From NCBI GenBank assembly GCA_965221695.1, contig OZ244905.1, positions 2,701,384 through 2,765,383 of the forward strand: 64,000 nt of DNA, read 5' to 3'. The DNA is from Gammaproteobacteria bacterium. GTDB taxonomy: Bacteria > Pseudomonadota > Gammaproteobacteria > Eutrophobiales > Eutrophobiaceae. Below the pieces are notes generated by a model. The model had not been told where the DNA came from and did no database searches. It saw only the letters and a program-made list of their open reading frames with translations. Within the stretch, counting starts at the first letter, position 1; every line of letters starts with the position of its first letter. The translations under genes were made by a program, and so were the position numbers. This document shows positions 8,608 to 49,089 of the stretch, piece by piece.

Positions 8608-10542
8608 TTGAACATGAGCAAAATTATCGGCATAGACCTGGGCACGACCAATTCCTGCGTTGCCGTTCTGGAAGGCGGCCAGGCCAGGGTTATTGAGAAC
8701 AGCGAAGGCGGCAGAACCACGCCGTCCATCGTCGCATTTTCCGACGACGATGAAGTTCTGGTAGGGCAGTCGGCCAAGCGCCAGGCGGTCACCAACCCCA
8801 ACAACACCTTGTTTGCGGTCAAACGTTTGATCGGCCGGCGCTATGATGACAATGTTGTGCAGAAGGATATCAACATGGTTCCGTATAAAATCGTCAAGGC
8901 TGACAACGGCGATGCCTGGGTTGATGTAAAAGGTAAGAAGATGGCCCCCCCGGAGGTCTCGGCGCGCGTGCTGATGAAAATGAAGCAGACGGCTGAGGAT
9001 TACCTGGGTGAAAAAGTGACCGAGGCGGTGATTACCGTTCCGGCCTATTTCAATGATTCGCAACGCCAGGCGACCAAGGATGCAGGCAAGATCGCGGGGC
9101 TGGAAGTTCGGCGCATCATCAATGAGCCTACGGCCGCGGCGCTGGCCTATGGCATGGACAAGAAACAGGGCGACTCCAGGATTGCCGTCTATGACCTGGG
9201 CGGCGGCACGTTCGATGTATCCATCATTGAAATTGCCGAAGTGGACGGTGAGCACCAGTTCGAAGTACTCTCCACCAACGGCGATACGTTCCTGGGCGGC
9301 GAGGATTTTGACCTGCGTATCATCGATTTTCTGTGCGACGAATTCAAGAAGGACCAGGGTATCGACCTGCACAATGACCCGCTGGCCTTGCAGCGTTTGA
9401 AAGAGGCTGCGGAAAAGGCCAAGATCGAACTGTCATCCAGCCAGCAGACCGATATCAACCTGCCGTATATCACCGCGGATGCCGGCGGTCCGAAGCATCT
9501 CAACATAAAGATGAGCCGTTCCAAACTTGAATCACTGGTGGAAGACCTCGTTGATCGTACCATAGAGCCTTGCCGCGTAGCCCTGGAGGATGCCGGCTAT
9601 GCTGCAGCGGATATCACTGACGTCATCCTGGTAGGCGGACAGACCCGCATGCCCAAGGTACAGGAGAAGGTCAAGCAGTTTTTCAATAAAGAACCGCGCA
9701 AGGATGTCAACCCGGATGAAGCTGTTGCGGTGGGCGCGGCCATCCAGGCCGGTGTACTCGGCGGTGACGTGAAGGATGTGTTGCTGCTCGATGTCACGCC
9801 TCTCTCGCTGGGCATTGAAACTCTGGGCGGCGTGATGACCCGTCTCATCGAGAAGAATACGACGATCCCGACCAAGGCACAGCAAGTGTTCTCCACCGCG
9901 GATGATAACCAGACAGCGGTGACCGTGCACGTGTTGCAGGGCGAGCGCGAGATGGTCGCGGGCAACAAGTCCCTGGGCCGCTTCGACTTGTCGGACATAC
10001 CGCCTGCGCCCCGCGGCATACCCCAGATCGAGGTAACTTTTGATATCGACGCCAACGGCATCATGAATGTTTCGGCCAAGGACAAGGCCACCGGCAAGGA
10101 ACAATCCATCGTTATCAAGGCTTCCAGCGGGTTGTCGGATGAGGAAATCGAGAACATGGTCAAAGACGCGGAAGCCCATGCCGAGGAAGACCGGCAGGCA
10201 AAGGAATTGGTCGAGGCCCGCAACCTGGCGGAGAACCTGGTGCATTCAACGAAAAAATCCATGGAGGAACTGGGCGACAAGGTTGAAGAACAGGAGAAAA
10301 AAGACATCGAATCTGCAATAGCCGAGGTAGAGGAAACCGTTAAAGGGAATGACAAGGAGGCCATAGAGGAGAAAACCCGGAAACTGACCGAGATCGCGGG
10401 CAAACTTGCGGAGCGTGCATACCAGCAGGCCGCAGCGGCGGGCGCCAACGGTGAGGGCAAGCCCGCGGGCACGGATAACGGACCCGGCGATGAAAATGTC
10501 GTCGATGCAGAATTCGAGGAAGTGGATGACAACAAGAAGTAA
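8608..10542 (+). CDS. dnaK: molecular chaperone DnaK (Hsp70)
   Basis: 644-aa product with canonical Hsp70 motifs ([36 protein letters not shown]) and an acidic EEVDDNKK tail. Confidence 0.97.
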
Positions 10543-10553
10543 ATCGGCGAGAA

Positions 10554-11693
10554 ATGCAGGTTATGGCCGCAAAACGAGATTACTATGACGTTCTTGGCGT
10601 ATCAAAAAATGCGTCTGACGCCGATATAAAAAAAGCCTTCCGCCGCCTGGCGATGAAGTACCATCCGGATCGCAATCCGGATGACCAGGAAGCGGAGGAA
10701 AAATTCAAGGAGGCCAAGGAGGCAAATGACATCCTCAGCGACCAGCAGAAACGGGCGGCTTACGACCAGTTTGGCCATGCCGGGGTCAGCACTTCGGCCG
10801 GTGGCGCGGACGGCCAGGGTTTCAGCGGCTTCGGCGATATATTCGACAGTGTGTTCGGAGACATATTCGGCGCGCAAGGACGCGGCGGCCAACGCACCCA
10901 GTCCGGCGCTAACCTCCGTTACGACCTGGAATTGAACCTGGAGGAAGCCATTGCCGGCTCCACCATCAAGATACGGGTACCCAGGCTGATAAGCTGTAAT
11001 GACTGTTCAGGCAGCGGCGCCAAACGGGGATCGAGTCCGTCCCAGTGCCCTACCTGCAACGGCGCCGGACAGATCCGTATGCAACAGGGATTTTTCTCGG
11101 TGCAGCAGACCTGTCCCAAATGCCGCGGCAAAGGAAGCATCATCAATGATCCATGCCGCACGTGCAATGGGCAGGGCAGGGTCCGCGACAGCAAGACTAT
11201 TTCCGTAAAAGTCCCGCCCGGTGTCAATACCGGCGACCGGATACGCCTCACCGGCGAGGGTGAAGCCGGCGAGTACGGCGCCCCACCCGGCGATCTTTAC
11301 GTACATGTCATCGTCAAGGATCACGAGATATTTACCCGCGACGGTTCGGACCTGTACTGTGAAGTGCCAATCAGTTTTGCCGCCGCCGCCCTGGGCCGGG
11401 ATATAGAAATACCCACGCTGGACGGCAAAATCAAACTGCGCATCCCGCCGGAAACCCAGAGCGGCAGGTTGTTCCGCCTGCGCGGCAAGGGCGTGCGCTC
11501 GGTGCGTTCGGCTGCAAGAGGCGACCTGTTATGCCGCGTCGCGGTTGAGACTCCGGTAAACCTGAGCAAACAACAGAAAGACATCCTGGAATCCCTTGAG
11601 GATTCCATGGAGAACGATGAATCACGCTTCCGCCCTAAGGCCAGCAAGTGGTTCGACAGCGTGAAGAAATTTTTCGAAAACGCCAACCGCTGA
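10554..11693 (+). CDS. dnaJ: molecular chaperone DnaJ
   Basis: J-domain ([13 protein letters not shown]), G/F-rich linker, four CxxCxGxG zinc-finger repeats and a C-terminal domain. Confidence 0.95.
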
Positions 11694-11764
11694 CCCGCAT
11701 GCTCAAAGCACTGCATGCCCGGGCAACAGCAGGAGTCCAGTCATATTACAGTGTAGTCCGGAGA

Positions 11765-36166: not shown

Positions 36167-36260
36167 TTCCGCAGCTTTGCCAACCGTTCTATGCGGTTGC
36201 CCTGCGCAGCGATGCAGGGATAATGTGCTGTACCGCATAATCAGCTACAATAACCAGCCC

Positions 36261-36347
36261 GGAGAGGTGCCAGAGTGGTTGAATGGGGCAGACTCGAAAT
36301 CTGTTGTACGCGTCAGCGTACCGTGGGTTCGAATCCCACCCTCTCCG
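36261..36347 (+). tRNA. tRNA-Ser (anticodon CGA)
   Basis: Folds by eye into a cloverleaf: acceptor ggagagg/cctctcc, 3-bp D stem, anticodon loop ctCGAaa, long variable arm gtacgcgtcagcgtac and T-arm cgtgggttcgaatcccac. CCA is not encoded. Confidence 0.85.
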
Positions 36348-36701
36348 TAACATTCATGCCACAGGCGCATCTGGCGCCTGTGGCATGAATGTTGATGCAA
36401 TGGGGTTCGAACCCACGGTAATTAAATACGGGTTCGACAAATTCGCTGGGAGCGAATTTGAACAGCGTAGCTGGCCCCGGAGGGGCAAACTACATGGATG
36501 TAGTTTGTAATCCCACCCTCTCCGTAACATTCATGGCACAGGCGCTTCTGTCGCCTGTGCCATGAATGTTGATGCAATGGGGTTCGAACCCACGGTAATT
36601 AAATACGGGTTCGACAAATTCGCTGGGAGCGAATTTGAACAGCGTAGCTGGCCCCGGAGGGGCAAACTACATGGATGTAGTTTGTAATCCCACCCTCTCC
36701 G
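36348..36701 (+). repeat. two tandem 177-bp direct repeats, each ending in a 17-nt copy of the tRNA-Ser 3' end (att-like)
   Basis: Units 36348-36524 and 36525-36701 each contain a perfect 13-14 bp stem hairpin (catgccacaggcgc..gcgcctgtggcatg vs catggcacaggcg..cgcctgtgccatg, with compensatory gcc<->ggc changes), a gggttcgaaccc palindrome and a terminal aatcccaccctctccg. Confidence 0.85.
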
Positions 36702-36705
36702 CCAT

Positions 36706-37896
36706 CTAATAGTCCGGTAAAGTCCGGAGTCTTCCAAGCGCTTCAATGAAATGTGCTAGTGACAGGATGGTTGTGTCCTGGCTGCCGGGGAATGTATCTT
36801 CGCCAGTGTAAACAACAAATTTCTGTTTTACCTTTAAGTCTTCACAGGCCATGTGAAAGCCTTTTTTCAAGGTTGGAGTTCGGCTTGCTTTGATCTCAAC
36901 GGCCCAGTATTCATCAAGACCAAACTCAATTACCAAATCAATTTCTGCCCCAGCAGATGTGCGATAGAAAAACGGATGAGCGCTTGAAGGTAAGGCGTTA
37001 ATAATGGTCTCAATGACAAACCCCTCCCAGCTTTTTCCGAATATAGGATGCCCCAACAAAGCTTCATAATTCGGAATTTGCAGCAAGGCATGCACAAGAC
37101 CGCTATCGCGTACATAGGTACGTGGTGATTTCACCAGCCGTTTTTTGACGTTCCCATGCCAAGGCTCTAGCCTGCGAACCAATAACAAATCAACCATGAG
37201 GTCCAGATATCGACTAACGGTGACACTCTCTACGCCAAGAGAGCTTGCGAGTTTTGACGCGTTCAGTAGTTCACCTTGTGTATGGGCAAGCATGGTCCAA
37301 AAGCGCATCAAGGTCGTTGCTGGAATTCTTGGTCCTAGCTGAGGGATGTCTCGTTCCAGATAGGTGCGAATAAAATTCTGCCGCCACTGGTGACTGGCCG
37401 CATCATCTTCAGCGGCATAGCTGTCGGGAAACCCACCACGTATCCAGAGCTTTTGTAAGGGCTCTCCGGATGTTTCTTCAATTTCAAAAAGGTTTAAGCC
37501 AGTCAGTTCAGAGTAATGAATGCGGCCAGCAAGGCTCTCAGAGCTTTGTTTTAGCAACTCATTGGTTGCCGATCCTAAAACAAGAAAGCGTCCGTTTCCG
37601 CGCCCCTCACGACGTCTGGCATCAATGATTCCGCGCAGTGACATAAACAAATCAGGGTAGCGTTGGACCTCATCGAGAATGACCAGCTTATCTGCATGTA
37701 GTTCTAGATAGTGGGCAGGGTCTTTGAGCTTTTGGAAATCCTCTGGGTTCTCGAGATCCAAATAAACAGATGGTTGCCCTTTGGCGATCTCATGGGCAAG
37801 CGTTGTCTTGCCAATCTGGCGCGGGCCAAGAATGGCAACAGCCGGATTTTGACTGAGACTTTTGATGATTTTCTGTGTAAGCTCTCTTTCATACAT
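36706..37896 (-). CDS. AAA+ ATPase, DUF4143-containing (COG1373-like)
   Basis: Walker A AILGPRQIGKTTLA, Walker B LVILDEVQ and a C-terminal DUF4143-like region. Start set at MYERELTQ (ORF-track start is 37971). Confidence 0.65.
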   Translation of the reverse strand: MYERELTQKIIKSLSQNPAVAILGPRQIGKTTLAHEIAKGQPSVYLDLENPEDFQKLKDPAHYLELHADKLVILDEVQRYPDLFMSLRGIIDARRREGRGNGRFLVLGSATNELLKQSSESLAGRIHYSELTGLNLFEIEETSGEPLQKLWIRGGFPDSYAAEDDAASHQWRQNFIRTYLERDIPQLGPRIPATTLMRFWTMLAHTQGELLNASKLASSLGVESVTVSRYLDLMVDLLLVRRLEPWHGNVKKRLVKSPRTYVRDSGLVHALLQIPNYEALLGHPIFGKSWEGFVIETIINALPSSAHPFFYRTSAGAEIDLVIEFGLDEYWAVEIKASRTPTLKKGFHMACEDLKVKQKFVVYTGEDTFPGSQDTTILSLAHFIEALGRLRTLPDY

Positions 37897-38276
37897 GCTA
37901 GCAATACTAACACAAAATATTAAATATGCAAGGTAAATGTTTTTGTGGTGATCTGTTTCCAATGAAGGCAAAGCGGGATTAGAACCCGCGATACGGTACC
38001 GTGTTCACAACAAAAACCGGCGCTTGGCGAGGAAGGTGTACAGGCGGGTGGTGAACAAGTCGCCGGTACGGCGAACTTTGCGAGGCACAAACCTCTTATC
38101 ACCCAATGTAATTCGGTTTGTATAGTCCGCAACATCCGTAATTGGTTTTGAAAATCCTGTGTCTATGGACAACCCCCCCATACTTGATTAGCATAAGTCA
38201 TAAGGAGGACCTATCGTGAACGTTGATTTCGTGACAAAGCGCCAGTCTGACAATCTCATGCAAATGCCGACCATCC

Positions 38277-38684
38277 ATGTCCAGGATTCGTTGTTATAGT
38301 ATCGGTCGAGACCCCTCCGCATCCATCGTACTGCGTCATGAGACGGTGTCGCGCAGGCATGCAGAGTTGATTCCCGTATCCGGCGGGCAGGTATACGTCA
38401 CGGATTGCGCCAGCGCCTGCGGGACTTTCATCGATAAGGGCAGGCGCTGGGAGAGGCTTACCCAGGATTTCGTCGGCGCAGGCGGCAGGGTGCGTTTCGG
38501 CGAGGTTGAGGTCAGCGTGCAGAGTCTGCTGGCGGACATTGCCCGCTTGCCTGCCGGCGGTGGAACGGGTCCCGGCGGTTCGGCGGAGCCCGGCGGTACC
38601 CCAGGCGCCGATAAGAAGAAACATGTGGATGCCGGCCGCGGGGTCATGCGCGACCCGGAAACGGGCGAGCCGATTCCCATGTAA
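38277..38684 (+). CDS. FHA-domain protein (small, cytoplasmic; Pro/Gly-rich tail)
   Basis: YSIGRDPSASIVLRHETVSRRHAEL....GTFI is an FHA core (G-R...S-R-xH...NG-T). First gene of the 8-gene cluster. Confidence 0.7.
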   Translation: MSRIRCYSIGRDPSASIVLRHETVSRRHAELIPVSGGQVYVTDCASACGTFIDKGRRWERLTQDFVGAGGRVRFGEVEVSVQSLLADIARLPAGGGTGPGGSAEPGGTPGADKKKHVDAGRGVMRDPETGEPIPM

Positions 38685-38699
38685 TCGGACAGACAGACC

Positions 38700-39473
38700 A
38701 TGAACCAGAGAATGAGGATATTCATAGGGGCGCTGGGCGCGGGCGTGATCTTCATCGGCCTGCTCAGCCTGTTTTTCTCCGAAGGTTTCTTCGCCGACTT
38801 CCTGCTGGACCGGAATTCGAAGTTCATGCCCTACCCGGTCACGATACAGAATATCATGTGGCTGGTGTTCTTCATCGGGGCGGGAGAATTGCTGTCGCGC
38901 TACCTGCAGACGGACCGGGAAATCAGCCAGATCCGCCTGGGACTGTTGCCGGAGGACAGCACAACCCTATTGCGCAAGCAAGATCTGGGCGGCGTGTACC
39001 AGCGCGTCAAGGAAACCATGCACCCGGCGCCGGGCGCTGCGGAGGATTCCTATTTCCTGCAACGCCTGCTGTCCCGTTGTATCCTGCAGTTCCAGGTCAG
39101 CGGCGCCATTGATAAGGCAAACAACATGTTCAACTCCAGCCTGGAGTTGTTCCAGCACGAGGTCGAGCTGAGGTACAATGCCATTCGCTATATCGTCTGG
39201 CTGATCCCGACCCTGGGGTTCATCGGCACCGTGGTCGGCATCGCGCTGGCGCTCAGCAACGCCGGCAGCGTCGACAACTTCCAGGACCCCACCTTGCTGA
39301 AACAGCTTACCCAGAGTCTCGGCGTAGCGTTCTTTACCACCTTGCTGGCCTTGCTGCAATCCGCGGCGCTGATGTTCGCGCTGCATGTCGTACAAGGACA
39401 GGAGGAAGCGTCGCTGAACCGGATAGGGCAGTATTGCCTGGATAACCTGATTAACCGGTTGTACGAGACTTGA
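38700..39473 (+). CDS. MotA/TolQ/ExbB-family proton-channel subunit
   Basis: Topology TM1 - ~130-aa cytoplasmic domain - TM2/TM3, with the family-typical IVWLIPTLGFIGTVVGIALAL and GVAFFTTLLALLQSAALMF helices. Confidence 0.7.
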   Translation: MNQRMRIFIGALGAGVIFIGLLSLFFSEGFFADFLLDRNSKFMPYPVTIQNIMWLVFFIGAGELLSRYLQTDREISQIRLGLLPEDSTTLLRKQDLGGVYQRVKETMHPAPGAAEDSYFLQRLLSRCILQFQVSGAIDKANNMFNSSLELFQHEVELRYNAIRYIVWLIPTLGFIGTVVGIALALSNAGSVDNFQDPTLLKQLTQSLGVAFFTTLLALLQSAALMFALHVVQGQEEASLNRIGQYCLDNLINRLYET

Positions 39474-39517: not shown

Positions 39518-39652
39518 CGCAGCGACTGCTGCCCGCAGGGTTGTATCCAGGGAAGGATGCAATGAGTGACGGAAGGAGAGAGGAATGACGGGTGGGTTCA
39601 AGAATGACGGTTAAGGGGCGAAGGGAGGTGTCGGCAAGTGGGTGTCGGCAAG

Positions 39653-39680
39653 TTGAACGCAGGGTGGTTTTCTGTTAAAT
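39653..39680 (+). promoter_or_regulatory. putative sigma-70 promoter for the second transcription unit of the cluster
   Basis: ttgaac-N16-ttaaat. Preceded by a direct repeat gtgtcggcaagtgg/gtgtcggcaagttg at 39628-39655. Confidence 0.3.
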
Positions 39681-39715
39681 TTTCATCAACCGCAACACCA
39701 GAAGGGGAGGACATC

Positions 39716-40375
39716 ATGCCGGTAAAACGCGATGCGGACGGGAACATCATAAAGGAACAGACAAGAACTACCGGAGTGGGTGATCCGGTGTTGCCGACCT
39801 TGGGGCGCTCCACTGTCGGCGCCACGGTCGGCCCCGGCAGGTCTCCCGAGACCAACCCCGGCCAGTCATCGGGTTATGAGGCCCAGACGGTGCTGGCAGG
39901 TTCGCCCCGTGTCGCGGAAGGGGAAGCCAGGACCCGGATCTACCGGCCCGGCAGGACGGGGCGGCAACAGCCGGAGACACCGGCTCCAGGTACGGGCGCT
40001 GAGGACGCGACGTCCTCTGCCATGGACGACCCGCCCGTAGGCTGGCTGGTCGTCGTCAGTGGGCCGGGACAGGGGAACTACATGGCCGTCGGCAACGGTT
40101 CGAATTCAGTCGGACGCGATGAGCGCGAGCGAGTGCGCGTGGATTTCGGTGACGAGTTGATCTCCCGCAGCGACCATTCAACGATCACCTACGATCCCAG
40201 GGGTAAGAAGTTTTACCTGCAGCACGGCGCCGGAAAAAACCTCACTTACCTGGAAGGCAAACCTGTCCTGGCGCCGACCGAACTGCCCGGGTTTTCCCGG
40301 ATCACGATTGGGAACACCGAATTGCTGTTCATCCCGCTCTGTTGCGATCAGTTTGACTGGGACGACTACACGTAA
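39716..40375 (+). CDS. FHA-domain protein (disordered Pro/Gly-rich N-terminus, C-terminal FHA)
   Basis: GWLVVVSGPGQGNYMAVGNGSNSVGRDERERVRVDFGDELISRSDHSTITYDPRGKKFYLQHGAGKNLTYLEGKPV is an FHA core. ATG start lies 6 nt after gaaggggagg; ORF-track start is GTG 39638. Confidence 0.7.
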   Translation: MPVKRDADGNIIKEQTRTTGVGDPVLPTLGRSTVGATVGPGRSPETNPGQSSGYEAQTVLAGSPRVAEGEARTRIYRPGRTGRQQPETPAPGTGAEDATSSAMDDPPVGWLVVVSGPGQGNYMAVGNGSNSVGRDERERVRVDFGDELISRSDHSTITYDPRGKKFYLQHGAGKNLTYLEGKPVLAPTELPGFSRITIGNTELLFIPLCCDQFDWDDYT

Positions 40376-40384
40376 CAGGTCGTT

Positions 40385-41368
40385 ATGAATGCCCTCAAGC
40401 AGTGGGTGTCGGGAGAGCAGATCCAGGGAGACCGAAATTACCAGGAAGACTATTTCTCGCTCAGCCTGCTTTCCCAGGGCCGGGAACCTCCGGATGAAGA
40501 CTGCCTGCTGCTCGTGCTGGCCGACGGCATGGGCGGACATGCCGGCGGCGCCGTTGCCAGCGAGACGGTAGTCAAGGCATTCCAGGAGGGCTTCAACCGC
40601 GATGCAACCGGGATCGCAGAGCGTTTCAGCGCCGGCATCGACACCGCCAACAACGCCGTCAGGGAAAAACAACAGGCCGATCCGGAACTGTCCGAGATGG
40701 GTTGCACCCTGGTGGCCGCGCTGGTGGTCGGGTCGACCCTTTACTGGACCAGCGTCGGCGATTCCATACTGTGGCTGTGCCGGCAGGGACATTTGCAGAG
40801 ATTGAATGCGGACCATTCCATGAAACCGCTGTTGCTGGACCTGGTCGAATTGGGCAGGATGACCGAAGAAGAGGCGCTGAGCGATTACCGGATCAACCAG
40901 CTACGCTCGGCCATTTTCGGCGAGGAGGTTCAGCTGATTGACATGAACGCGGACGGTTTCCAACTGGAGAGTGGTGATCTCGTTTTACTGGCCAGCGACG
41001 GCCTGGAAACCCTGTCCGGGCAAAGCATGACAGATGTCATCGAGGCCCGCGCGGACGATGCCGATGAGATAGTGAACGCCCTGCTTGACGCAGTTGCCAT
41101 GGCGGGGGTGCGCGGGCAGGACAATACTACGGCGCTGGCGTACCGGGTCGGCCAGGGGCATGATTCACTGCACGGCGTACTGGCGGGCATCAGCACAGAT
41201 GACAAGGATGCCGTATTCGAGCAGCAAGTGAAACCCTCCCGAACCTGCGAGTTGCGCCCGGCACAGGAACAGGAAGCGCCGGCAAAGCGGCCCGGCATCT
41301 TCGCCCGAGCCATACATGCCTTCTCCGGTAGACCGGCGCGTCAAGACACTCGTGACGGGAAGCAATGA
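40385..41368 (+). CDS. PP2C-family Ser/Thr protein phosphatase
   Basis: LLVLADGMGGHAGGAVAS, MGCTLVAALV, YWTSVGDSILWL and LLASDGL are canonical PP2C/PPM motifs including the metal-binding Asp residues. Confidence 0.8.
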   Translation: MNALKQWVSGEQIQGDRNYQEDYFSLSLLSQGREPPDEDCLLLVLADGMGGHAGGAVASETVVKAFQEGFNRDATGIAERFSAGIDTANNAVREKQQADPELSEMGCTLVAALVVGSTLYWTSVGDSILWLCRQGHLQRLNADHSMKPLLLDLVELGRMTEEEALSDYRINQLRSAIFGEEVQLIDMNADGFQLESGDLVLLASDGLETLSGQSMTDVIEARADDADEIVNALLDAVAMAGVRGQDNTTALAYRVGQGHDSLHGVLAGISTDDKDAVFEQQVKPSRTCELRPAQEQEAPAKRPGIFARAIHAFSGRPARQDTRDGKQ

Positions 41369-43104
41369 CAGCAATACGAGCATTGATGTTGTGTGCGCTT
41401 CTGGTGTACCTGCCGGCAGGCAACAGCCAGACGACCGGTGATGACGCAGAAGCGCCGGCTGTTTCCTCTGCCACTGCACCCGCTGTGCCTGCTGATACGC
41501 CCGTGACAACGGAGGACCCAGCGCAAATAGCCGCCCCCTCAGCGGATACAGCCACGGCGATTGCCGCGGTTGTGCAGGTTCCCGAACCCGTAGATTTCAG
41601 TGCGGTGCGGCCCCACCTGGTGGTCATAAGAGAAGGGATGGACGCCGCCGCACGTCGCACGCCGGGATTCAGCATCAGCGACCAGGGCCATATCCTGACT
41701 TATTCCGGAGAATTACGCGCCCGGGAGTACTACCTTGTCTCGGTTGCAGGCGGTCAGGTCTTTACTGCTGCGCTGCTTGATGAAGATGAAGACACCGGCC
41801 TCATGCTACTGAGGATCGCAGGAGAAGGGCACGGCCTCACCGCCCTGAAGTTTGCCAGAACGACGCTGGAAGCCGCGGTGCCGCTCTATGCAGTACGGTT
41901 CGACCCGGTGCGGGCGGAGCCGTTCGTGCCCGTTCCCGGCACGGTCACGCGGTTGCCTGCAACGGATGAGGAGACACCGGCAATCGTGCATAATGCCCTG
42001 TTCAATACGGCGGCCGCCGGGACGCCCTTGTTCAACCGTTGTTACCAGGCGGTCGGTGTCAGCGTGCTGCAAAGGAAGGGCTTCCCGCCGAGAACTCTCG
42101 ATCCCCAACAACAGGGTAGCGCCATCTCCCTGGCGGCCTACTCGTTGAGCGTGATCCTGGCGTCGGCCAACCTGACCCTGCCCATCGCTGAGGCGGAGTG
42201 CCAGAGTGCGGAGGAGGAGGCGCGACTGCGGCTGGAACAACTTCAGCAGGAAAAAGAGGCGGAGCGGGCAAATGCCGAAGCCCTGGCCCTTGCCGCCGCG
42301 GAGGAAGCGCTGCGCAGGGAGGCGGTAATGAACCTGGAGCGGGAAGCAGCGCAACAGCAGCTTGAACAGGCGCGCCAAGAGAAAGAAGCGGCCCTGCAGG
42401 CGGAGCGGGCAAGTGCCGAAGCCGATAAGCGCCGTTTGGAAGAAGAAGCGCAGCAACAACTTGAACAGGCGCAGCAGGAGAAGGAACAGGCCCTGCAGGC
42501 ACAACAGCAGGAGAATGAACAGGCTCTGCAGGTGGAGCGGCAGGAGACCGAACAGGCCCGGCGGGAAGCCCGGCAGGCGACGCATACGGGGAAACAGATC
42601 CTGCTGTTATCGCTAGCGGTCGTCTTCGTCCTGGCGCTGGTCTTCTTCCTGGTCCTGCGCGCCAGGCGTAAACACCTGCAACGCGTGGAACAGGAAAAAC
42701 AGCAGTTCGCCCAGGACCTGGACAGGGCAGAGGCAGACCTGTCAGACGCCTCCGAGAGGGAGCAGCTACGCGCCGGCGCCCCCGACGTGTTTATCGAGGG
42801 TGTCACGCCGCAGAACGAGCGCATCGCCCTGAAAATACCCGGCGCCTCACTGGTCAAACCCTCAGGTGTCACGGTAGGCAGGAGTCCCTCCGAATCCGAG
42901 TTCGTCATCAATCACGAACAGGTCTCCCGCCGCCATTTCCGCCTCATGCTGGTGTCTGGGCAGGTGATGATCGAAGATATGGGCTCGACCAATGGGACCG
43001 TCGTGAACGGCGTGCCCCTCAGTCCCGGCGCCCGGCAGACGCTGGGCGACGGCAGCCGCATGCAGGTCGGGCGCGTGACGATGACGGTGCGGATAGGTCT
43101 CTGA
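41365..43104 (+). CDS. bitopic membrane protein: signal peptide - degenerate trypsin-like (pseudo-protease) periplasmic domain - long coiled-coil - TM - cytoplasmic C-terminal FHA domain
   Basis: Periplasmic part resembles the S1 fold (GHILTYSG..; DTGLMLLRI; AAAGTPLFN in place of GNSGGPL), with the catalytic His and Ser replaced. EQARQEKEAALQAERASAEADKRRLEEEAQQQLEQAQQEKEQALQ heptad region, TM ILLLSLAVVFVLALVFFLVL, then FHA (VGRSPSESEFVINHEQVSRRHFRL..GSTNGTVVNG). Confidence 0.6.
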   Translation: MTAIRALMLCALLVYLPAGNSQTTGDDAEAPAVSSATAPAVPADTPVTTEDPAQIAAPSADTATAIAAVVQVPEPVDFSAVRPHLVVIREGMDAAARRTPGFSISDQGHILTYSGELRAREYYLVSVAGGQVFTAALLDEDEDTGLMLLRIAGEGHGLTALKFARTTLEAAVPLYAVRFDPVRAEPFVPVPGTVTRLPATDEETPAIVHNALFNTAAAGTPLFNRCYQAVGVSVLQRKGFPPRTLDPQQQGSAISLAAYSLSVILASANLTLPIAEAECQSAEEEARLRLEQLQQEKEAERANAEALALAAAEEALRREAVMNLEREAAQQQLEQARQEKEAALQAERASAEADKRRLEEEAQQQLEQAQQEKEQALQAQQQENEQALQVERQETEQARREARQATHTGKQILLLSLAVVFVLALVFFLVLRARRKHLQRVEQEKQQFAQDLDRAEADLSDASEREQLRAGAPDVFIEGVTPQNERIALKIPGASLVKPSGVTVGRSPSESEFVINHEQVSRRHFRLMLVSGQVMIEDMGSTNGTVVNGVPLSPGARQTLGDGSRMQVGRVTMTVRIGL

Positions 43105-43818
43105 ATGAACCGTTCATTGTGGTGCGGTTTGATATTTCTCAGCCTCTGGGGTCTGAGTTACCAGGGTGGCGCGGATATTGATGACCAGGAAGAACATTTC
43201 AGGGAGGAGCAGGGGGCGCAACAGGATCAGGAAGCCGCGCGACGGGAACGCAAGCGTGCCCGACAGGCAGAACAGGAGGCGCTCCGGCAACAGGAAGCGG
43301 CGCGCCAGCGCGTGGTTCAGCAAAATCTGTTCGTAACCTTGCTGGCTCTGTTGACCCTGCTGGCCTTGATACTGGCCTTGAGAAAACCCCGGCAGGCCAT
43401 TGTTTGGGCCGCCGGCCACGCAATCGAACCACTCAGTCGGCGCTTCAAACCGGCAGGGCGCTTGCCCGCGCCGGGCGCAGCCCGCGCCGGGACGGCAAAC
43501 GTCGTACTTACGGGCTTTGACAGCCGGGGCAAACCGGTGAATATCCCGTTGCCGGAGGAGGAACTGGATCGGAAACGGGGCGGTTTCACCCTGGGGCGCC
43601 ATCACCTGCTGGTCGATACGGCGCTGGACGATGACCGGATATCGAAGCGCCATGCCCGGTTCACCCGCAACGGTCACGGCTATTTTATCGAAGACCTCAA
43701 TTCGAGAAACGGCACTGTGATCAACGGTGAGCAACCCTGCGCGCCGTTCAAACCCATGCGAATCAGGCCCGGCGACACGGTGCGGCTAGGCGGCATGGAG
43801 TTGCTCGTATCGGCCTGA
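43105..43818 (+). CDS. bitopic membrane protein: signal peptide - periplasmic coiled-coil - TM - cytoplasmic C-terminal FHA domain
   Basis: N-terminal hydrophobic leader, charged coiled-coil (EQGAQQDQEAARRERKRARQAEQEALRQQEAARQ), TM FVTLLALLTLLALILAL, then FHA (LGRHHLLVDTALDDDRISKRHARF..NSRNGTVING). The start codon abuts the previous stop. Confidence 0.6.
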   Translation: MNRSLWCGLIFLSLWGLSYQGGADIDDQEEHFREEQGAQQDQEAARRERKRARQAEQEALRQQEAARQRVVQQNLFVTLLALLTLLALILALRKPRQAIVWAAGHAIEPLSRRFKPAGRLPAPGAARAGTANVVLTGFDSRGKPVNIPLPEEELDRKRGGFTLGRHHLLVDTALDDDRISKRHARFTRNGHGYFIEDLNSRNGTVINGEQPCAPFKPMRIRPGDTVRLGGMELLVSA

Positions 43819-43831
43819 TTCGGAAGCGCCC

Positions 43832-44635
43832 GTGAGGCTACGCAGCAAGGAGATCAATGTCTTCAACATGTCCGCGCTGGACCTGTTCGCCTCCGCGCTG
43901 GGTGCGTTTATCCTTATTTCCGTGGTCTTGTTTCCCTATTTTCCCAACACCGGCGATTCCCAGGAACGGGTGGACGAGGTCAAGGCGCAACTGGCTGAGG
44001 CCAATGCGCGATTGGAGGAAACCAGCGCCGAACTGGAGCAGGTCCGCGCCCGGTTGAACCCCGCCCTGGAACAAGAACTGCAGGTCGCACGAGAACAACT
44101 CGGCGCGTGCCAGGCCCGACTCCGGGAGGCAGAGGCCGCGCTAAACGCCTGCCAGGTTGAACAGCGAGAAGTTGCATCATTGGATTCCGCGCTGGGCGCC
44201 TGCGAGAACCGCAACCGGCAGATGCAACAGGAACTGCAATCCTGCGAGAATGAATTGCGCAAGAAATTCGTGCTGGTCGTGATCAGCTGGGGCACGCCGG
44301 ACGATATCGACCTGCACGTGATCGATCCGCAAGGCCGGGAGTTCTTCTACGGGCGCAAACACATCCCCGGTTCCCTGGCAAAACTGGAAGAGGACAACAC
44401 CAGAGGTCCCGGCAATGAGATCTGGCTGCACCCGGCCGCGGAGCCGGGCGCCTACGAGGTTTACTACAAATATTACGATGGATCAACCGGCAACGTGCAG
44501 GTGCGCGGCGCGGCGCTGACGCCCCGCGGCAGGACGGAGTTGCCGGACATCACTCTGCGGTACGTGGGTGAGAAGCCCCTGGTGGCAACCATTTTCGTCA
44601 ATGAGGATGGCAACGCTGAGGTGAGGGCATGGTAA
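43832..44635 (+). CDS. ExbD/TolR/MotB-like membrane anchor fused to a coiled-coil and an unknown beta-rich C-terminal domain
   Basis: N-terminus KEINVFNMSALDLFASALGAFILISVVLF matches the TolR/ExbD TM signature (E-I-N-x-x-P/N-x-x-D-V/L), including the conserved protonatable Asp. Followed by a ~110-aa coiled-coil and a ~120-aa domain (..DIDLHVIDPQGREFFYG..GAYEVYYKYYDGSTGN..). Confidence 0.5.
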   Translation: MRLRSKEINVFNMSALDLFASALGAFILISVVLFPYFPNTGDSQERVDEVKAQLAEANARLEETSAELEQVRARLNPALEQELQVAREQLGACQARLREAEAALNACQVEQREVASLDSALGACENRNRQMQQELQSCENELRKKFVLVVISWGTPDDIDLHVIDPQGREFFYGRKHIPGSLAKLEEDNTRGPGNEIWLHPAAEPGAYEVYYKYYDGSTGNVQVRGAALTPRGRTELPDITLRYVGEKPLVATIFVNEDGNAEVRAW

Positions 44636-44766: not shown

Positions 44767-47373
44767 ATGAACTCCGACCACCTGCATGCCCTACCGCCCG
44801 GCACGCGCCTTGAAGAATTTCGGCTGGAGGCGCAGGTGGGCGCCGGCGGGTTCAGCATCACCTATCGGGCCTATGACGAATTACTGGACAAGGTGGTGGC
44901 CGTCAAGGAATACCTGCCGCGGGATTTCGCCACCCGCACCGCCGGCAATACAGTGGCGCCCATATCCGATGCGGACGCCCGGGATTACCAGTGGGGCCTG
45001 ACCCGGTTCCTGGACGAGGCCCGCACGCTGGCCAGGTTCGACCATCCGCATCTCAACAAGGTGCGTCGTTTCTTCGAGGCCAACGGCACGGCCTACATGG
45101 CGCTGGAGCATATCCATGGCGAGACCCTGGCTACCCGGTTAAGCCGCGAGCGGCGCTTGCCGGAAACGGACCTGCTGCGCCTGCTGGAGGAAGTGTTATC
45201 GGGACTTGCTGTGATTCACGAGGCTGGCTACGTGCACCGGGACATCAAACCGGGCAACCTGATGCTGCGCGAGGAAGACGACAGCATAGTGCTGCTGGAC
45301 TTCGGCGCCGCGCGCCAGGCAGTGGGCCAGAGTTCCAAGTCAATCACCAGCATCCTGACACCGGGCTATGCCCCGATAGAGCAGTACGAAAGCAAAGCGG
45401 ACGCCGTCGGACCGTGGAGTGATATCTATGCATTGGGGATGGTGGCGTACAAGTGCATCAGCGGCGCGGGTGACGGGGAGTTGCCCGATGCCGTGACCCG
45501 GGCCCGCTCCCAACGCAAAGGGGGTAAGGACCTGGCGATGGCGGCGGAGGTGGGCCAGAGCAGGTACAGTGCGAAGCTGCTGGCGGCGATAGACTGGGCC
45601 ATCGAGGTGGATGAGGAGTCCCGGCCGCAGGGGGTGGGTGAGTGGAGTGAGGCGCTGGTGGGGAGCGGGAGCAAGCAACGAGCCGCCAAACCGGCGCCTA
45701 ATACAACGGCACGGTCTGCAAAGGCTCCGGCCACCGAGCGCCAGGGTATGAATTGGTACAGCATGGCCCTGACCGCGGTGATAGTGGTGTTACTGGGAGC
45801 GAGCGCCTGGCAGGGCTGGCGGCTGTATCAGGGGATGCCCGGGCTTGGCGTAGACGGCGCCGCCACGGCAGTTGAGTCGCAGGCAAACGCACAGGGCAAA
45901 GCAGAGTTAGCAGCAGAACCCTATGCACAAACACCAACGGTAACGCCAGAACAAGGCTCCGGGCCTGACGCGCCCACACTGGCCGCGCCGGTTGAGGAAG
46001 ACGAAGTCGCCCGGCTGCTGGCTGCAGCCGAAGCCGACTTGGAGGCAAGACGCCTGACCAGTCCGCAGGGGAACAACGCCTGGGAGAAGTACCGGCGGGT
46101 ATTGGGTTTATCCTCCGCGCACCCCGAGGCCATAGCGGGGATGGAGCGGGTGATCGGGAGTTACATGGACCTGTTCGGCGCTGTTCTGGAGCAGGAGGAT
46201 TTTGACCAGGCGGAGGGGTATCTCTCACGCATCCGCGACCTGCACCCGGATTCGCCACTCTTGTTGACGGGGAAAGAACGTTTGGAACAAGCCCGGCAGG
46301 CTCATGTCGAGCGGTTGGCGGAAGAAGAGCGCCTGCGCCAGGCCGAGGAAGCGGCGCGCCAGGCGGAACAGGAGCGCCAGCGAATAGCACAGGAAATCGA
46401 GAGACACTGGCAGTCCTTTGAGACGGCAATGCAGCAAGACAAATTGGACCGGGCGGAAGACAGTCTCAACCTCGTGCGGGAGTTGGACTCGGACGCGCCG
46501 GGGTTAGCGGATGCGGAACGACGCCTGTCACAGGCGCGGGAAGCATCCCGGCAGAAGGCGCTGCAGTATGCCGGTGAGATGGTCTCCATCCCTGCCGGCA
46601 GTTTCCGCATGGGGGACCTGACAGGCGCTGACGCTGAGAAACCGGTCCACAGTGTGCGAGTCGCGGCCTTCAGCATGGGCAAGTATGAGGTAACGGTGGG
46701 CCAGTTCCAGCGGTTTGTGGAGGCGACGGGGTACCTCACGGATGCGGAGCGTTATACGGACGGCAAAGCAGGTTGTTCTGTCTATACAACAAAAAGATGG
46801 AAGTACACCGAGGGCAAGAGTTGGCGCAATCCGGGGTTTTCAGTCGGAGACAAGCACCCGGTGGTGTGCGTGAACTGGAATGATGTGCAGGCGTTCGTGA
46901 AGTGGCTGAACGGCAATACCGATGGGGATTTCCGCTTGCCGACCGAGGCGGAGTGGGAGTATGCGGTGCGCGCCGGGAGCAGTACGAAGTATCATTTCGG
47001 CAATGATGAGTCACAACTGTGCCGGTTTGCCAGCCATGCGGACAGCGGGACGGATATTGATTGGAAAAACAAGTCCTGCTCGGACGGTGTGGGCGAACGC
47101 ACCGCCGAAGTGGGCCGTTACCAGCCGAACAGTTTCGGGCTGTATGACATGCACGGCAATGTCTGGGAGTGGGTGACAGATTGCTGGAATGAGAGTTATG
47201 TGGGCGCCCCGACAGACGGTAGCGCCTGGACGAATGGGGACTGCAGCCGGCGCGTCATTCGGGGCGGGGCCTGGGACAGCTCACCGTGGAACCTGCGTTC
47301 CGCGCACCGTTACGGGAGCTCCCGTTCGAATCACAGCTCTTATCTGGGCTTTCGCTTGGCCCGGGACAACTGA
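44767..47373 (+). CDS. transmembrane Ser/Thr protein kinase with periplasmic coiled-coil region and C-terminal FGE/SUMF1 (formylglycine-generating enzyme-like) domain
   Basis: Hanks kinase motifs (VAVKEY; HRDIKPGNLML; LLDFGAAR; TPGYAPIEQ), TM ALTAVIVVLLGASAW and the FGE-sulfatase fold signature (MGKYEVTVGQFQRFV; FRLPTEAEWEYAVRAG; YDMHGNVWEWVTDCW; RVIRGGAWDS). Confidence 0.85.
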   Translation: MNSDHLHALPPGTRLEEFRLEAQVGAGGFSITYRAYDELLDKVVAVKEYLPRDFATRTAGNTVAPISDADARDYQWGLTRFLDEARTLARFDHPHLNKVRRFFEANGTAYMALEHIHGETLATRLSRERRLPETDLLRLLEEVLSGLAVIHEAGYVHRDIKPGNLMLREEDDSIVLLDFGAARQAVGQSSKSITSILTPGYAPIEQYESKADAVGPWSDIYALGMVAYKCISGAGDGELPDAVTRARSQRKGGKDLAMAAEVGQSRYSAKLLAAIDWAIEVDEESRPQGVGEWSEALVGSGSKQRAAKPAPNTTARSAKAPATERQGMNWYSMALTAVIVVLLGASAWQGWRLYQGMPGLGVDGAATAVESQANAQGKAELAAEPYAQTPTVTPEQGSGPDAPTLAAPVEEDEVARLLAAAEADLEARRLTSPQGNNAWEKYRRVLGLSSAHPEAIAGMERVIGSYMDLFGAVLEQEDFDQAEGYLSRIRDLHPDSPLLLTGKERLEQARQAHVERLAEEERLRQAEEAARQAEQERQRIAQEIERHWQSFETAMQQDKLDRAEDSLNLVRELDSDAPGLADAERRLSQAREASRQKALQYAGEMVSIPAGSFRMGDLTGADAEKPVHSVRVAAFSMGKYEVTVGQFQRFVEATGYLTDAERYTDGKAGCSVYTTKRWKYTEGKSWRNPGFSVGDKHPVVCVNWNDVQAFVKWLNGNTDGDFRLPTEAEWEYAVRAGSSTKYHFGNDESQLCRFASHADSGTDIDWKNKSCSDGVGERTAEVGRYQPNSFGLYDMHGNVWEWVTDCWNESYVGAPTDGSAWTNGDCSRRVIRGGAWDSSPWNLRSAHRYGSSRSNHSSYLGFRLARDN

Positions 47374-47463: not shown

Positions 47464-49089
47464 TCACCGCATCGATTTTTGCAGTACCGAGAAGTTTCTT
47501 ACCCAAGGCTCTAGTTTGCGTATTTCATCGGGCAAATCATCTATAGCTCTTTCGGCAAGCTCATAGTCATGGTACAGACCATAAAACACGCGATAGTAAG
47601 TTATCTGCTCGATCTCGATCCTGATATAGGCAATCTGCTGTGTCAGGTTATTCTGTTTGAGGAAATTTAGCACACGTTCTTCACTGGAAAAGCTGGCCAG
47701 TTGCAAAGTGTAGTGATACGGAGATTGTGCGGCGACCCAGTCTTCCCGCCTGATAGCGGTCTCACCGGCGTCAGAGGCATCCTCGCCAGCCAACTCATCT
47801 TCATCGGAAATGACCTCGCTGGTGGTCGCAACCAGATCGGAAATGGCCTCTGGTACAGCCGCAATGTATTCCGCTGTCGCTGGTACAGGGCTGGTGTCCG
47901 CGGTCTCTGCAACAGTCTCCGGCGTTTCCTCCTCCGCGGCGTTCAGCGCGATCTCGGCGGTGTCCTCATCCGTCTGAGCAGCTACGATGGTCGGCGTTTC
48001 TTCGACAGCAGGCGCTGTGTCTTCTGCTTCAGTTGCCTCAGCAGCAGTTTGAGCAAGGCTGGTCTCCGCGGTCTCTGCAACGATCTCCGGCGCTTCCTTC
48101 TCCGCATCGAACAGTGCGGTCTCGGCTGTGTCTTCGTCCGACTGAGCGGCTATGGTCGGCGCTTCCTCCTGCGTGACGCTCAGTGCGGTCTCGGCAGCGT
48201 CCTCATCCGGCTGAGCAGCTATAATCGGTGTTTCCTCGACGGCAGGTACCGTATCTTCTTCAGTTGCCTGCGCAAAGGGTTCTGTTGTTTCCTGCATTGC
48301 AGGCGCTTGCGATACGGTCGTGTCCTCTTCAATATCGACATAAGCAAGTCTTTGTAAGCTTTCTTCTGCCTGTTGCAGACCCCCGGCGGCCGCGCGTTGA
48401 TACCATTTTTTCGCCTCCACCAGGTCCTTTTCTACCGCGTAACCATTTTCATAGTACACGCCCATGTTGAATTGCGCCTGTGGGACATCGGCGTCAGCGG
48501 CTTTTCTGAACCAGAGTAGCGCTACATCATAGTCCTGGTCGACGCTGTAACCGAAGGCGTACATGACAGCCAGGCTGTATTGCGCATTTCCGTTTCCCTG
48601 CTCTGCTGCTTGGCGGAAAAGCCGGGTGGCTGTTTCATAATCCCGGGTAATCTGCTCACTGCCGTTGAAGTACAAAAGGCCAAGGTTGAACAGCGCATCC
48701 GATTGCCCGGCCGCCGCGGCCAGCTTCCACCATTGCATGACTTTAGACGGGTCTTTTGTGACACCATCACCGTGCAAGTACTTGACGCCGAGCTCGAATT
48801 GGGCGTCGGGGTGCCCTTGATCCGCCGCAAGCAAGTACCATTTTACTGCTTCGGCAGAATCTGCGTTAACGCCATGGCCATAGTCATACATGAGGCCAAG
48901 CATTCTTTGCGCATCCGAGTTGCCGTCCTCAGCCAGTGGTTGCAGTATTTCGTAGGCTTTTTCGTAGTCTTTGGCCAGGTAGGCCTGTCTCGCCGTTTCA
49001 AAAGATTGCGCCAGCACAGGGCCGGAAAATACCAACCCCAATAACAGGAAAGGAATTAACTTGGTCAGCATAAACCGTATCTTTGACAT
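47464..49089 (-). CDS. secreted Sel1-repeat (SLR) protein with acidic tandem-repeat linker and C-terminal SPOR (septal peptidoglycan-binding) domain
   Basis: Signal peptide, then >=6 Sel1-like repeats (A..W..AA.QG...AQ..LG.MY..G.GV..D), a D/E/T/A-rich repetitive region and a C-terminal SPOR-like fold (YTLQLASFSSEERVLNFLKQNNL...YYRVFYGLYHDYELAERA). Confidence 0.65.
   Translation of the reverse strand: MSKIRFMLTKLIPFLLLGLVFSGPVLAQSFETARQAYLAKDYEKAYEILQPLAEDGNSDAQRMLGLMYDYGHGVNADSAEAVKWYLLAADQGHPDAQFELGVKYLHGDGVTKDPSKVMQWWKLAAAAGQSDALFNLGLLYFNGSEQITRDYETATRLFRQAAEQGNGNAQYSLAVMYAFGYSVDQDYDVALLWFRKAADADVPQAQFNMGVYYENGYAVEKDLVEAKKWYQRAAAGGLQQAEESLQRLAYVDIEEDTTVSQAPAMQETTEPFAQATEEDTVPAVEETPIIAAQPDEDAAETALSVTQEEAPTIAAQSDEDTAETALFDAEKEAPEIVAETAETSLAQTAAEATEAEDTAPAVEETPTIVAAQTDEDTAEIALNAAEEETPETVAETADTSPVPATAEYIAAVPEAISDLVATTSEVISDEDELAGEDASDAGETAIRREDWVAAQSPYHYTLQLASFSSEERVLNFLKQNNLTQQIAYIRIEIEQITYYRVFYGLYHDYELAERAIDDLPDEIRKLEPWVRNFSVLQKSMR
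47890..48280. repeat. intragenic imperfect tandem DNA repeats (~170-215 bp units with sub-repeats) encoding the acidic linker of the Sel1-SPOR protein
   Basis: Recurring gcggtctcggc(a/t)g(c/t)gtcctcatccg(g/t)ctgagcagcta..atggtcggcg(c/t)ttc blocks. Translated repeats are DEDTAETAL..EAPEIVAETAETS. Confidence 0.6.

Follow-up and report, generated by a model that had tools for sequence, protein, structure and literature searches.

The stretch of DNA analysed here (the window, 64,000 nucleotides (nt) of a gammaproteobacterium of the GTDB family Eutrophobiaceae, contig OZ244905.1, positions 2,701,384 to 2,765,383) carries on its forward strand an open reading frame (ORF) at 43832-44635. Its product, termed the target below, is probably the B-type subunit of a non-canonical ion motor of the MotA/ExbB type, with the MotA-like protein encoded at 38700-39473 as the A subunit. 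The motor pairing of these two proteins is strongly supported by genomic context. Motors of the MotA/ExbB type power flagella, TonB-dependent uptake, the Tol-Pal system, gliding and Zorya defence, and it is the B subunit that sets what is pulled. Most likely, the target extends a recently proposed kind of B subunit, built on a so-called transpore helix, by a protein that bears a DUF2135 head and not a vWA head and that belongs to a Ser/Thr-phosphorylation cassette. A preliminary description of the ORF had reported an ExbD/TolR-like membrane anchor with a conserved Asp, a coiled coil and an unknown C-terminal domain, encoded four genes away from its presumptive MotA/ExbB partner. Our analysis confirms the observation and finds its interpretation right in substance, while corrections are needed to the signature claimed for ExbD/TolR, to the domain termed "unknown" and to the meaning given to the non-adjacent genes.

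The target and its parts are the following:

43832-44635, forward strand: target ORF, GTG start, 267 amino acids (aa)
43832-43939, forward strand: residues 1-36, basic cytoplasmic tail and single membrane helix with the invariant Asp17; family-defining module EINIFSMSALDLFASALGAFILI
43961-44257, forward strand: residues 44-142, long helical, heptad-rich stalk with Cys93, Cys107, Cys124 and Cys138
44270-44635, forward strand: residues 147-267 and stop codon, beta-sandwich head of the YfaP/DUF2135 family

The GTG start is credible, as homologous proteins of several phyla start at the equivalent position with the conserved basic tail M-K/R-x-R-S-K/R-E-I-N-I-F; a weak GGAAG is located 6-10 nt upstream of it. 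A search for orthologues of this architecture, which the preliminary description had suggested, yielded 941 homologues at E≤1e-3 together with a conserved operon, and the ORF is therefore not a product of chance. The AlphaFold2 model, built on an alignment of 42 homologues, bears out the earlier described layout of membrane helix, heptad-rich stalk and beta-rich C-terminal domain. In the model, residues 1-10 are a disordered basic tail, 11-36 a helix, 44-114 and 119-142 two further helices and 147-266 a beta-sandwich; the head, when modelled by itself, reached a predicted local distance difference test score (pLDDT) of 88 and a predicted template modelling score (pTM) of 0.84. By hydropathy, the protein has a single membrane segment (residues 11-29), and a short conserved segment, PYFPNTGDS, follows the membrane helix. 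The basic tail MRLRSKE and the acidic stretch behind the helix indicate that the N-terminus lies in the cytoplasm and the C-terminus outside, so that stalk and head are periplasmic.

Asp17 (nt 43880-43882) lies 10 residues past the last charged residue of the tail and 18 residues ahead of Pro35. All 42 aligned homologues have this residue, and so does each full-length ORF of the family in 79 species-representative loci. Its location in the cytoplasm-proximal third of the helix is comparable to that in verified TolR, MotB and ZorB sequences, and the earlier claim of a conserved Asp at the expected membrane position thus holds. Across at least six phyla, no part of the protein is better conserved than the N-terminal module, which is near-identical between them, whereas stalk and head vary and the stalk differs in length among homologues. 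The four Cys residues of the stalk are conserved to 69-100% among the 42 sequences. They are spaced by 14/17/14 residues and therefore occupy one heptad position per predicted helix segment.

The target is the seventh of eight same-strand operon genes, and its linkage to the clade of the MotA-like protein was studied in both directions. For the forward test, one genome per species was scanned, which revealed 359 target loci in Gamma- and Alphaproteobacteria, Binatia, Latescibacterota, Acidobacteriota, Phycisphaerales and Campylobacterales; ORFs were called in 84 of these loci and searched with the eight proteins of the window. A MotA-like gene is located at most 10 kb from the target in 68 of the 84 loci, in 67 cases on the same strand. 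It directly precedes the target, with a gap of 9-80 nt, in 13 species-representative loci, and about 39 related loci overall show direct adjacency in the order A-then-B. In Latescibacterota the order is target-FHA-MotA, and the four-gene gap of the window represents one variant among several. The genes that the preliminary description had placed between the MotA-like gene and the target, namely those of an FHA protein, a PP2C phosphatase and two membrane-anchored FHA proteins, are indeed found there in this order. Non-adjacency as a notable trait of the family, however, does not stand in view of the directly adjacent loci: the four-gene separation in the window is a lineage-specific local rearrangement and not a family property.

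The reverse test comprised 80 metagenome loci that were picked solely by their MotA-like gene. The N-terminal module of the target occurs in 58 of them, including all whose flanks extend 7 kb or more on each side, and the other 22 are all truncated contigs. Neither in the window nor in the 164 loci of the forward and reverse tests was a canonical ExbD, TolR or MotB homologue identified. Two-way synteny, adjacency in relatives and the lack of a canonical B gene in the 164 loci support the MotA-like protein as the presumptive partner, as had been proposed. A search of 72,556 plasmid records gave a single occurrence each of the full-length target and of the MotA-like clade, both on the same replicon of Rhizobium leguminosarum BT01 and 51 nt apart. 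This replicon is the 1.33-Mb conjugative pRlBT01d (NZ_CP125637.1, about 157.0-174.8 kb), where the genes are arranged as PP2C-FHA-MotA-target, the target having a DUF2135 head; next to them, in divergent orientation, lie genes for a kinase, an FHA protein and a second PP2C.

The MotA-like protein reaches a PF01618 score of 41.7 bits (cut-off 22.9). It keeps the motif IPTLGFIGTVVG of the third transmembrane segment (TM3) and the motif AFFTTLLAL of the fourth (TM4), and in 15 diverse members of the clade P170, T171, G173, G176, T177 and G180 of TM3 as well as F211 and T214 of TM4 are invariant. The C-terminal motif GQYCLDNLINRLYE is common to the clade. When the family profile was compared with the PDB, all 12 matched chains were MotA, PomA, TolQ or ZorA, matched over TM3-TM4, and the best PADLOC match of the protein is ZorA2 (7.5e-6). 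The clade is far from TolQ/ExbB (E 0.1-0.6 against PDB chains), which makes it unlikely that it shares a housekeeping TolR.

The N-terminal module reaches well beyond proteins with the head of the target. A HMMER search with the 47-residue module over 1.84 billion representative proteins, clustered at 50% identity, gave 1084 clusters at a threshold of E≤1e-3, of which 465 also passed E≤1e-10, and with few exceptions the top 150 have the module at residues 1-47. The heads in these top 150 of the 1084 clusters are vWA domains in 84 cases and of the window type (DUF2135) in 36, while 29 are fragments. The vWA heads were confirmed by Pfam in six examples (1e-5 to 3e-11) and show motifs of the DxSGS type of the metal-ion-dependent adhesion site (MIDAS); their commonest gene arrangement is FHA-MotA-T-FHA-T. 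The B-type helix, shared by more than 1000 clusters, can be regarded as a portable element to which different periplasmic heads are joined. In one locus (L009), a DUF2135-headed copy (10001-10771) and a vWA-headed copy (10888-11742) stand in tandem and are identical in their first 43 residues. This identity points to a recent head exchange or gene conversion, and the two products may form a mixed dimer in one motor.

Proteins matching the vWA-headed majority are described in PMC12204202 (Mol Biol Evol 2025). According to the sections of that paper considered here, membrane-tethered TPH-vWA proteins possess a single N-terminal transpore helix (TPH) with a conserved Asp and a tolQ/motA-like gene as neighbour; their genes lack an accompanying tolR/exbD and mostly come as heterologous pairs. 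The same sections propose TPH-vWA proteins as dimeric partners of the tolQ-like pentamer and present AlphaFold3 models in which the helix lies inside the pentamer with the Asp pair within a ring of Thr residues. As all these features match our vWA-headed relatives, we take both to be the same superfamily, as far as the cited sections describe it. The heterologous pairs reported there correspond to the FHA-MotA-T-FHA-T pairs observed here. With the TPH-vWA proteins so described, the window protein shares the Asp-bearing helix, the tolQ-like neighbour and the lack of tolR/exbD. It differs in its DUF2135 head, in being single-copy and in its distance of four genes from the MotA-like gene. Section 8 of PMC12204202 and term searches of the paper gave no mention of a DUF2135 head or of FHA, PP2C or kinase genes.

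How the membrane helix relates to the known B subunits was studied by several profile methods. Pfam and NCBIfam detect no ExbD, MotB or OmpA domain in the target, in accordance with the earlier statement that a TolR/ExbD periplasmic or OmpA-like domain is missing. Whole-protein scans with Pfam, NCBIfam and PADLOC for membership in these families returned coiled-coil noise. Neither the isolated N-terminal 47-53 residues nor 20 homologous N-termini match Pfam ExbD (PF02472) or MotB_plug. PDB sequence searches with full-length, head-domain and N-terminal profiles gave no relevant match and no B subunit; the matches of the N-terminal profile are helices of insect Orco (E about 0.5). A hidden Markov model (HMM) of the family N-terminus, derived from 78 unique N-termini, was run with filters off against 9215 sequences that included six known B-subunit N-termini. 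It ranked ZorB (8qyd_F) 11th (E 11), E. coli MotB 36th, ExbD 185th and TolR 531st, none of them significantly. By hhalign, Asp17 falls on the MotB Asp in a small MotB/ZorB alignment (P = 0.2, not significant), while against a small ExbD/TolR alignment the Asp is unaligned and the score likewise not significant. The TolR/ExbD helix signature of the preliminary description is hence not borne out by profile alignment, the comparison on which that description had let it depend. With residues 1-47 as query, ZorB1 is the only one of 5027 PADLOC models to be matched, through its N-terminal helix; the match is found for 17 of 20 members (E about 2e-3) and aligns target residues 6-34 with profile positions 12-40. 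At the level of the window, PADLOC reports weak matches to ZorA2 (7.5e-6) and ZorB1 (3.8e-4), both confined to membrane helices, and no Zorya component beyond these. From these sequence comparisons, the helix appears to bear a weak resemblance that is nearer to MotB/ZorB than to ExbD/TolR.

The head domain, by contrast with its earlier designation as unknown, can be assigned at the sequence level to the YfaP/DUF2135 type. BLASTP against E. coli YfaP gave 36% identity over 94 residues (E 6e-14), and hhalign of the family alignment against YfaP gave a probability of 97.7% (E 1.6e-12, 88 columns). In the plasmid records, tblastn matches are annotated "YfaP family protein" or "DUF2135 domain-containing protein" (E about 3e-6). 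E. coli YfaP itself matches PF09906 at 2.3e-18. This Pfam model has no match in the window protein and is weakly matched by six of 23 homologues (best E-value 0.0021); the Pfam signal of the head is weak because the 48-position model spans only the C-terminal half of the shared region. The head has the conserved motifs DDxDLHVxDP and LEEDNxxGPGNEIWLHP, and one might speculate that the acidic, Gly-rich loop LEEDNxxGPGNE binds a metal or a ligand. In E. coli, yfaP adjoins an alpha-2-macroglobulin gene and yfaQ. YfaP carries a head homologous to that of the target and, as far as examined, no transpore helix, no coiled coil and no linkage to a MotA-like gene. In the literature searched, we found no earlier report of a YfaP/DUF2135 head linked to a motor, and the association described here supplies DUF2135 with a functional context.

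The two best full-length PDB fold matches of the head in Foldseek are the TerD-family chains 2qz7 (E 1.7e-3, template modelling score 0.68) and 2qng (E 4.3e-3, score 0.67). Sequence-level similarity to TerD was not supported: hhalign against a TerD alignment gave P = 0.12 in a different register, which is not significant. Consequently, we claim a fold resemblance to TerD and nothing more. A correspondence noted by eye between DNxxGxG of the head and the Ca-binding GDNxTGEG...DDE motifs of TerD was not reproduced and was dropped.

Besides the target, the operon consists of seven genes:

38277-38684, forward strand: small cytoplasmic FHA protein, 135 aa (Pfam FHA 3e-13), 15 nt upstream of the MotA-like gene
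38700-39473, forward strand: MotA/ExbB/TolQ-family protein, 257 aa, presumed A subunit (PF01618 1.1e-10)
39638-40375, forward strand: FHA protein with a long Thr/Ser/Pro-rich N-terminus, 245 aa (Pfam FHA 4e-6, residues 157-225), kept in related loci
40385-41368, forward strand: PP2C-type Ser/Thr phosphatase, 327 aa (PP2C_2 2.7e-13; NCBIfam Stp1/IreP 7e-41, below cut-off)
41365-43104, forward strand: 579-aa protein with signal peptide, periplasmic trypsin-like domain, E/Q/A-rich helical region, membrane helix 412-430 and cytoplasmic FHA domain (Trypsin_2 3e-6, FHA 2e-16, membrane-segment scan)
43105-43818, forward strand: shorter membrane-anchored FHA paralogue, 237 aa, with N-terminal hydrophobic segment, E/Q-rich region, membrane helix 74-92 and cytoplasmic FHA domain (FHA 3e-17, membrane-segment scan)
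44767-47373, forward strand: Ser/Thr kinase, 868 aa, with membrane helix 330-348, periplasmic TPR/helical region and FGE-sulfatase domain of C-type-lectin fold (Pkinase 1.7e-31, FGE-sulfatase 1.1e-67, membrane-segment scan)

Of the 131 MotA-like genes with enough upstream sequence, 103 are immediately preceded by a small FHA gene. Genes for PP2C and for the kinase-FGE-sulfatase protein accompany most related loci, the latter often as tandem arrays. The linkage of the motor clade to FHA, PP2C and kinase genes suggests that an ion-driven motor is regulated by phosphorylation. In the literature searched on MotA, FHA, PP2C, FGE-sulfatase, DUF2135 and TerY, we found this cassette nowhere described; PMC7159879 covers vWA/FGE-sulfatase conflict systems and does not cover MotA.

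From these data, the following picture of the motor may be drawn. Two target helices would sit within a pentamer of the MotA-like protein, where Asp17 would take up protons beside the conserved Thr177 and Thr213/214, and proton flow would drive a rotation of dimer and pentamer relative to each other. As the 14/17/14 spacing puts one Cys heptad position into each segment, we infer that the stalk forms a parallel and probably disulfide-locked dimer in the periplasm. If continuous, its helix of about 100 residues would hold the two heads approximately 15 nm into the periplasm, where the DUF2135 domains might bind some envelope partner or ligand. On the cytoplasmic side, kinase and PP2C together with the FHA proteins could switch the motor or read its state via phospho-threonine binding.

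Several findings weigh against the assignment of the target as a B subunit and against this picture. Homology of the target helix to any known B subunit is, at the sequence level, not statistically established. The identity of the module superfamily with the published TPH-vWA family goes by the description in the cited sections of PMC12204202 and not by sequences. At least four genomes (L020, L021, L023 and L024) have an orphan target with no system gene within 10 kb of available sequence (3.3 kb upstream in L020), and L029, L030, L067 and L083 are likewise orphan, but on shorter or truncated contigs. Pore insertion and the 5:2 stoichiometry are extrapolated for a motor known here from its genes, and the proposed tie between phospho-signalling and motor is based on gene linkage.

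An alternative is that the target is no motor subunit but a membrane-anchored periplasmic co-receptor or scaffold of kinase/FHA signalling, its Asp making helix-helix contact with a further membrane protein of the operon and the MotA-like protein working on its own. In its favour, signalling parts prevail in the operon, with four FHA domains, a PP2C and a kinase; orphan targets do without a nearby MotA-like gene, and sequence homology to B subunits is not significant. Yet the closest and most frequent neighbour of the target is the MotA-like gene, and there are minimal FHA-MotA-target(-FHA-target) loci that, in the sequenced stretch, lack the trypsin-FHA genes and often the kinase. Moreover, a MotA/ExbB protein without a B partner would be unprecedented, and the membrane helices of both membrane-anchored FHA proteins, inspected by eye, offer no basic residue to pair with the Asp. 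We therefore regard a co-receptor role as unlikely.

Still less probable, in our estimate, is that the target works as a TolA/TonB-style transducer or accessory outside the MotA-like pentamer, the true B subunit being a housekeeping TolR/ExbD encoded elsewhere. The three-part layout of membrane helix, long stalk or linker and globular head is shared with such transducers, and the cited sections of PMC12204202 describe one vWA family of the TolA/TonB type, for which they define an SHLS motif with a conserved His. The target helix MSALDLFASALGAFILISVVLF, read by eye, contains neither a His nor an SHLS motif and has the invariant Asp instead. In addition, no tolR/exbD accompanies the MotA-like clade in the 164 loci, and the distance of this clade from TolQ/ExbB argues against a shared housekeeping TolR. 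That the target is an unrelated periplasmic DUF2135 protein in the operon, with a helix resemblance due to chance, is very improbable: short membrane helices do give weak and unreliable profile matches, but the module is the best-conserved part across at least six phyla and more than 1000 clusters, and its synteny with the MotA-like clade is two-way.

For the B subunit of a MotA/ExbB-type motor, which remains our preferred assignment, envelope surveillance or defence, force transduction and adhesion are candidate outputs. Surveillance or defence is compatible with the presence of more than one system in some genomes, with exchangeable heads and with the arrays of sensor kinases. Against a defence role stand the absence of any known defence system recognised by PADLOC in the window and of any target homologue in the phage collection. 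A further-reaching model, which we put forward tentatively and regard as rather doubtful in its entirety, would see here a widespread proton-driven rotary motor in a kinase/PP2C/FHA circuit: swappable DUF2135 or vWA heads on a disulfide-locked stalk would serve a Zorya-like surveillance or defence, arrays of kinase-FGE-sulfatase proteins would sense periplasmic ligands, and binding of phospho-Thr by FHA domains would gate the motor or read it out. If true, this would be the first motor of the MotA/ExbB family under the control of eukaryote-like protein phosphorylation. The system is present in the cultured strains Rhizobium leguminosarum BT01, Hansschlegelia beijingensis DSM 25481, Nitrincola alkalisediminis JCM 19317 and Thiomicrospira microaerophila ASL8-2, and direct testing is therefore possible.

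Compared with MotAB/PomAB, ExbBD and TolQR, the system shares the PF01618 A subunit with its TM3/TM4 motifs and, on the B side, a single helix with cytoplasmic N-terminus and cytoplasm-proximal Asp. Unlike the B subunits of these systems, the target has no ExbD, MotB_plug or OmpA domain but a stalk and a DUF2135 head, and in the window the two genes are not adjacent. ZorAB of Zorya is, like the proposed motor, non-flagellar and of the 5:2 type, and ZorA2 and the ZorB1 helix are weakly matched here, though far below family level. The window system has no ZorB peptidoglycan-binding domain, no long ZorA tail and no ZorC or ZorD, and its long helical element is periplasmic and part of the B subunit, whereas in Zorya it is cytoplasmic and part of the A subunit.

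The Agl-Glt machinery of Myxococcus (AglRQS, GltG/GltJ) likewise combines a TolQ/MotA-type motor with membrane-anchored FHA proteins. AglQ and AglS are TolR-type subunits, and GltG and GltJ carry TonB-like C-terminal domains. FHA domains of the window show weak domain-level NCBIfam matches to GltG, but unlike Agl-Glt the window contains no Glt components. Actinobacterial operons of the type fhaA-fhaB-pstP-...-pknA-pknB share FHA, PP2C and a membrane Ser/Thr kinase with the window, whose FHA domains match NCBIfam FhaB/FipA below cut-off. These fhaA/pknB-type operons have no MotA-like motor, and the sensors of their kinases are PASTA domains, compared with FGE-sulfatase in the window.

Further observations concern the related loci. 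The orphan copies of the target keep an intact N-terminal module and sit among housekeeping genes, without MotA-like, FHA, PP2C or kinase neighbours within 10 kb; in a SAR86 metagenome-assembled genome (L021) the neighbours, as judged by eye, are a lactate permease and an L-lactate dehydrogenase. Two separate whole systems per genome occur in L022/L036 (OZ241358.1), in L014/L046 (OZ244744.1, approximately 30 kb apart) and in L075/L079 (OZ244561.1). Arrays of three to five kinase/FGE-sulfatase paralogues follow the cassette in L008 (10810-20815), L025 (10806-19037), L028 (11628-19785), L064 (10825-16941) and L073 (12864-20227), which suggests a diversified sensor repertoire. Counterparts of the 43105-43818 protein are longer in most related loci (about 440-540 aa, e.g., 465 aa in L001, and likewise in L004) and possess a periplasmic trypsin domain. 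In the window, the trypsin-like domain of the 41365-43104 protein seems, by eye, to lack the catalytic Ser, with FNTAAAGTPLFN in place of the expected GNSGGPL, and may be a binding module rather than a protease.

The window derives from a metagenome-assembled genome of an uncultured gammaproteobacterium, and a locus on contig CBDCSC010000001.1 (L006) shows 99% identity to it. Upstream of the operon, the window contains a tRNA-Ser(CGA) at 36260-36348 and, on the reverse strand at 36706-37971, an ORF of 421 aa that by eye is AAA-ATPase-like. The G+C content rises from 0.49 in the 36-38 kb stretch to 0.59-0.625 in the operon; this step could be an island boundary, although no integrase was seen. 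Directly downstream of the operon, the reverse-strand ORF at 47464-49089 encodes 541 aa, in which a signal peptide, Sel1-like repeats, an acidic low-complexity region and a SPOR-like C-terminus were recognised by eye.

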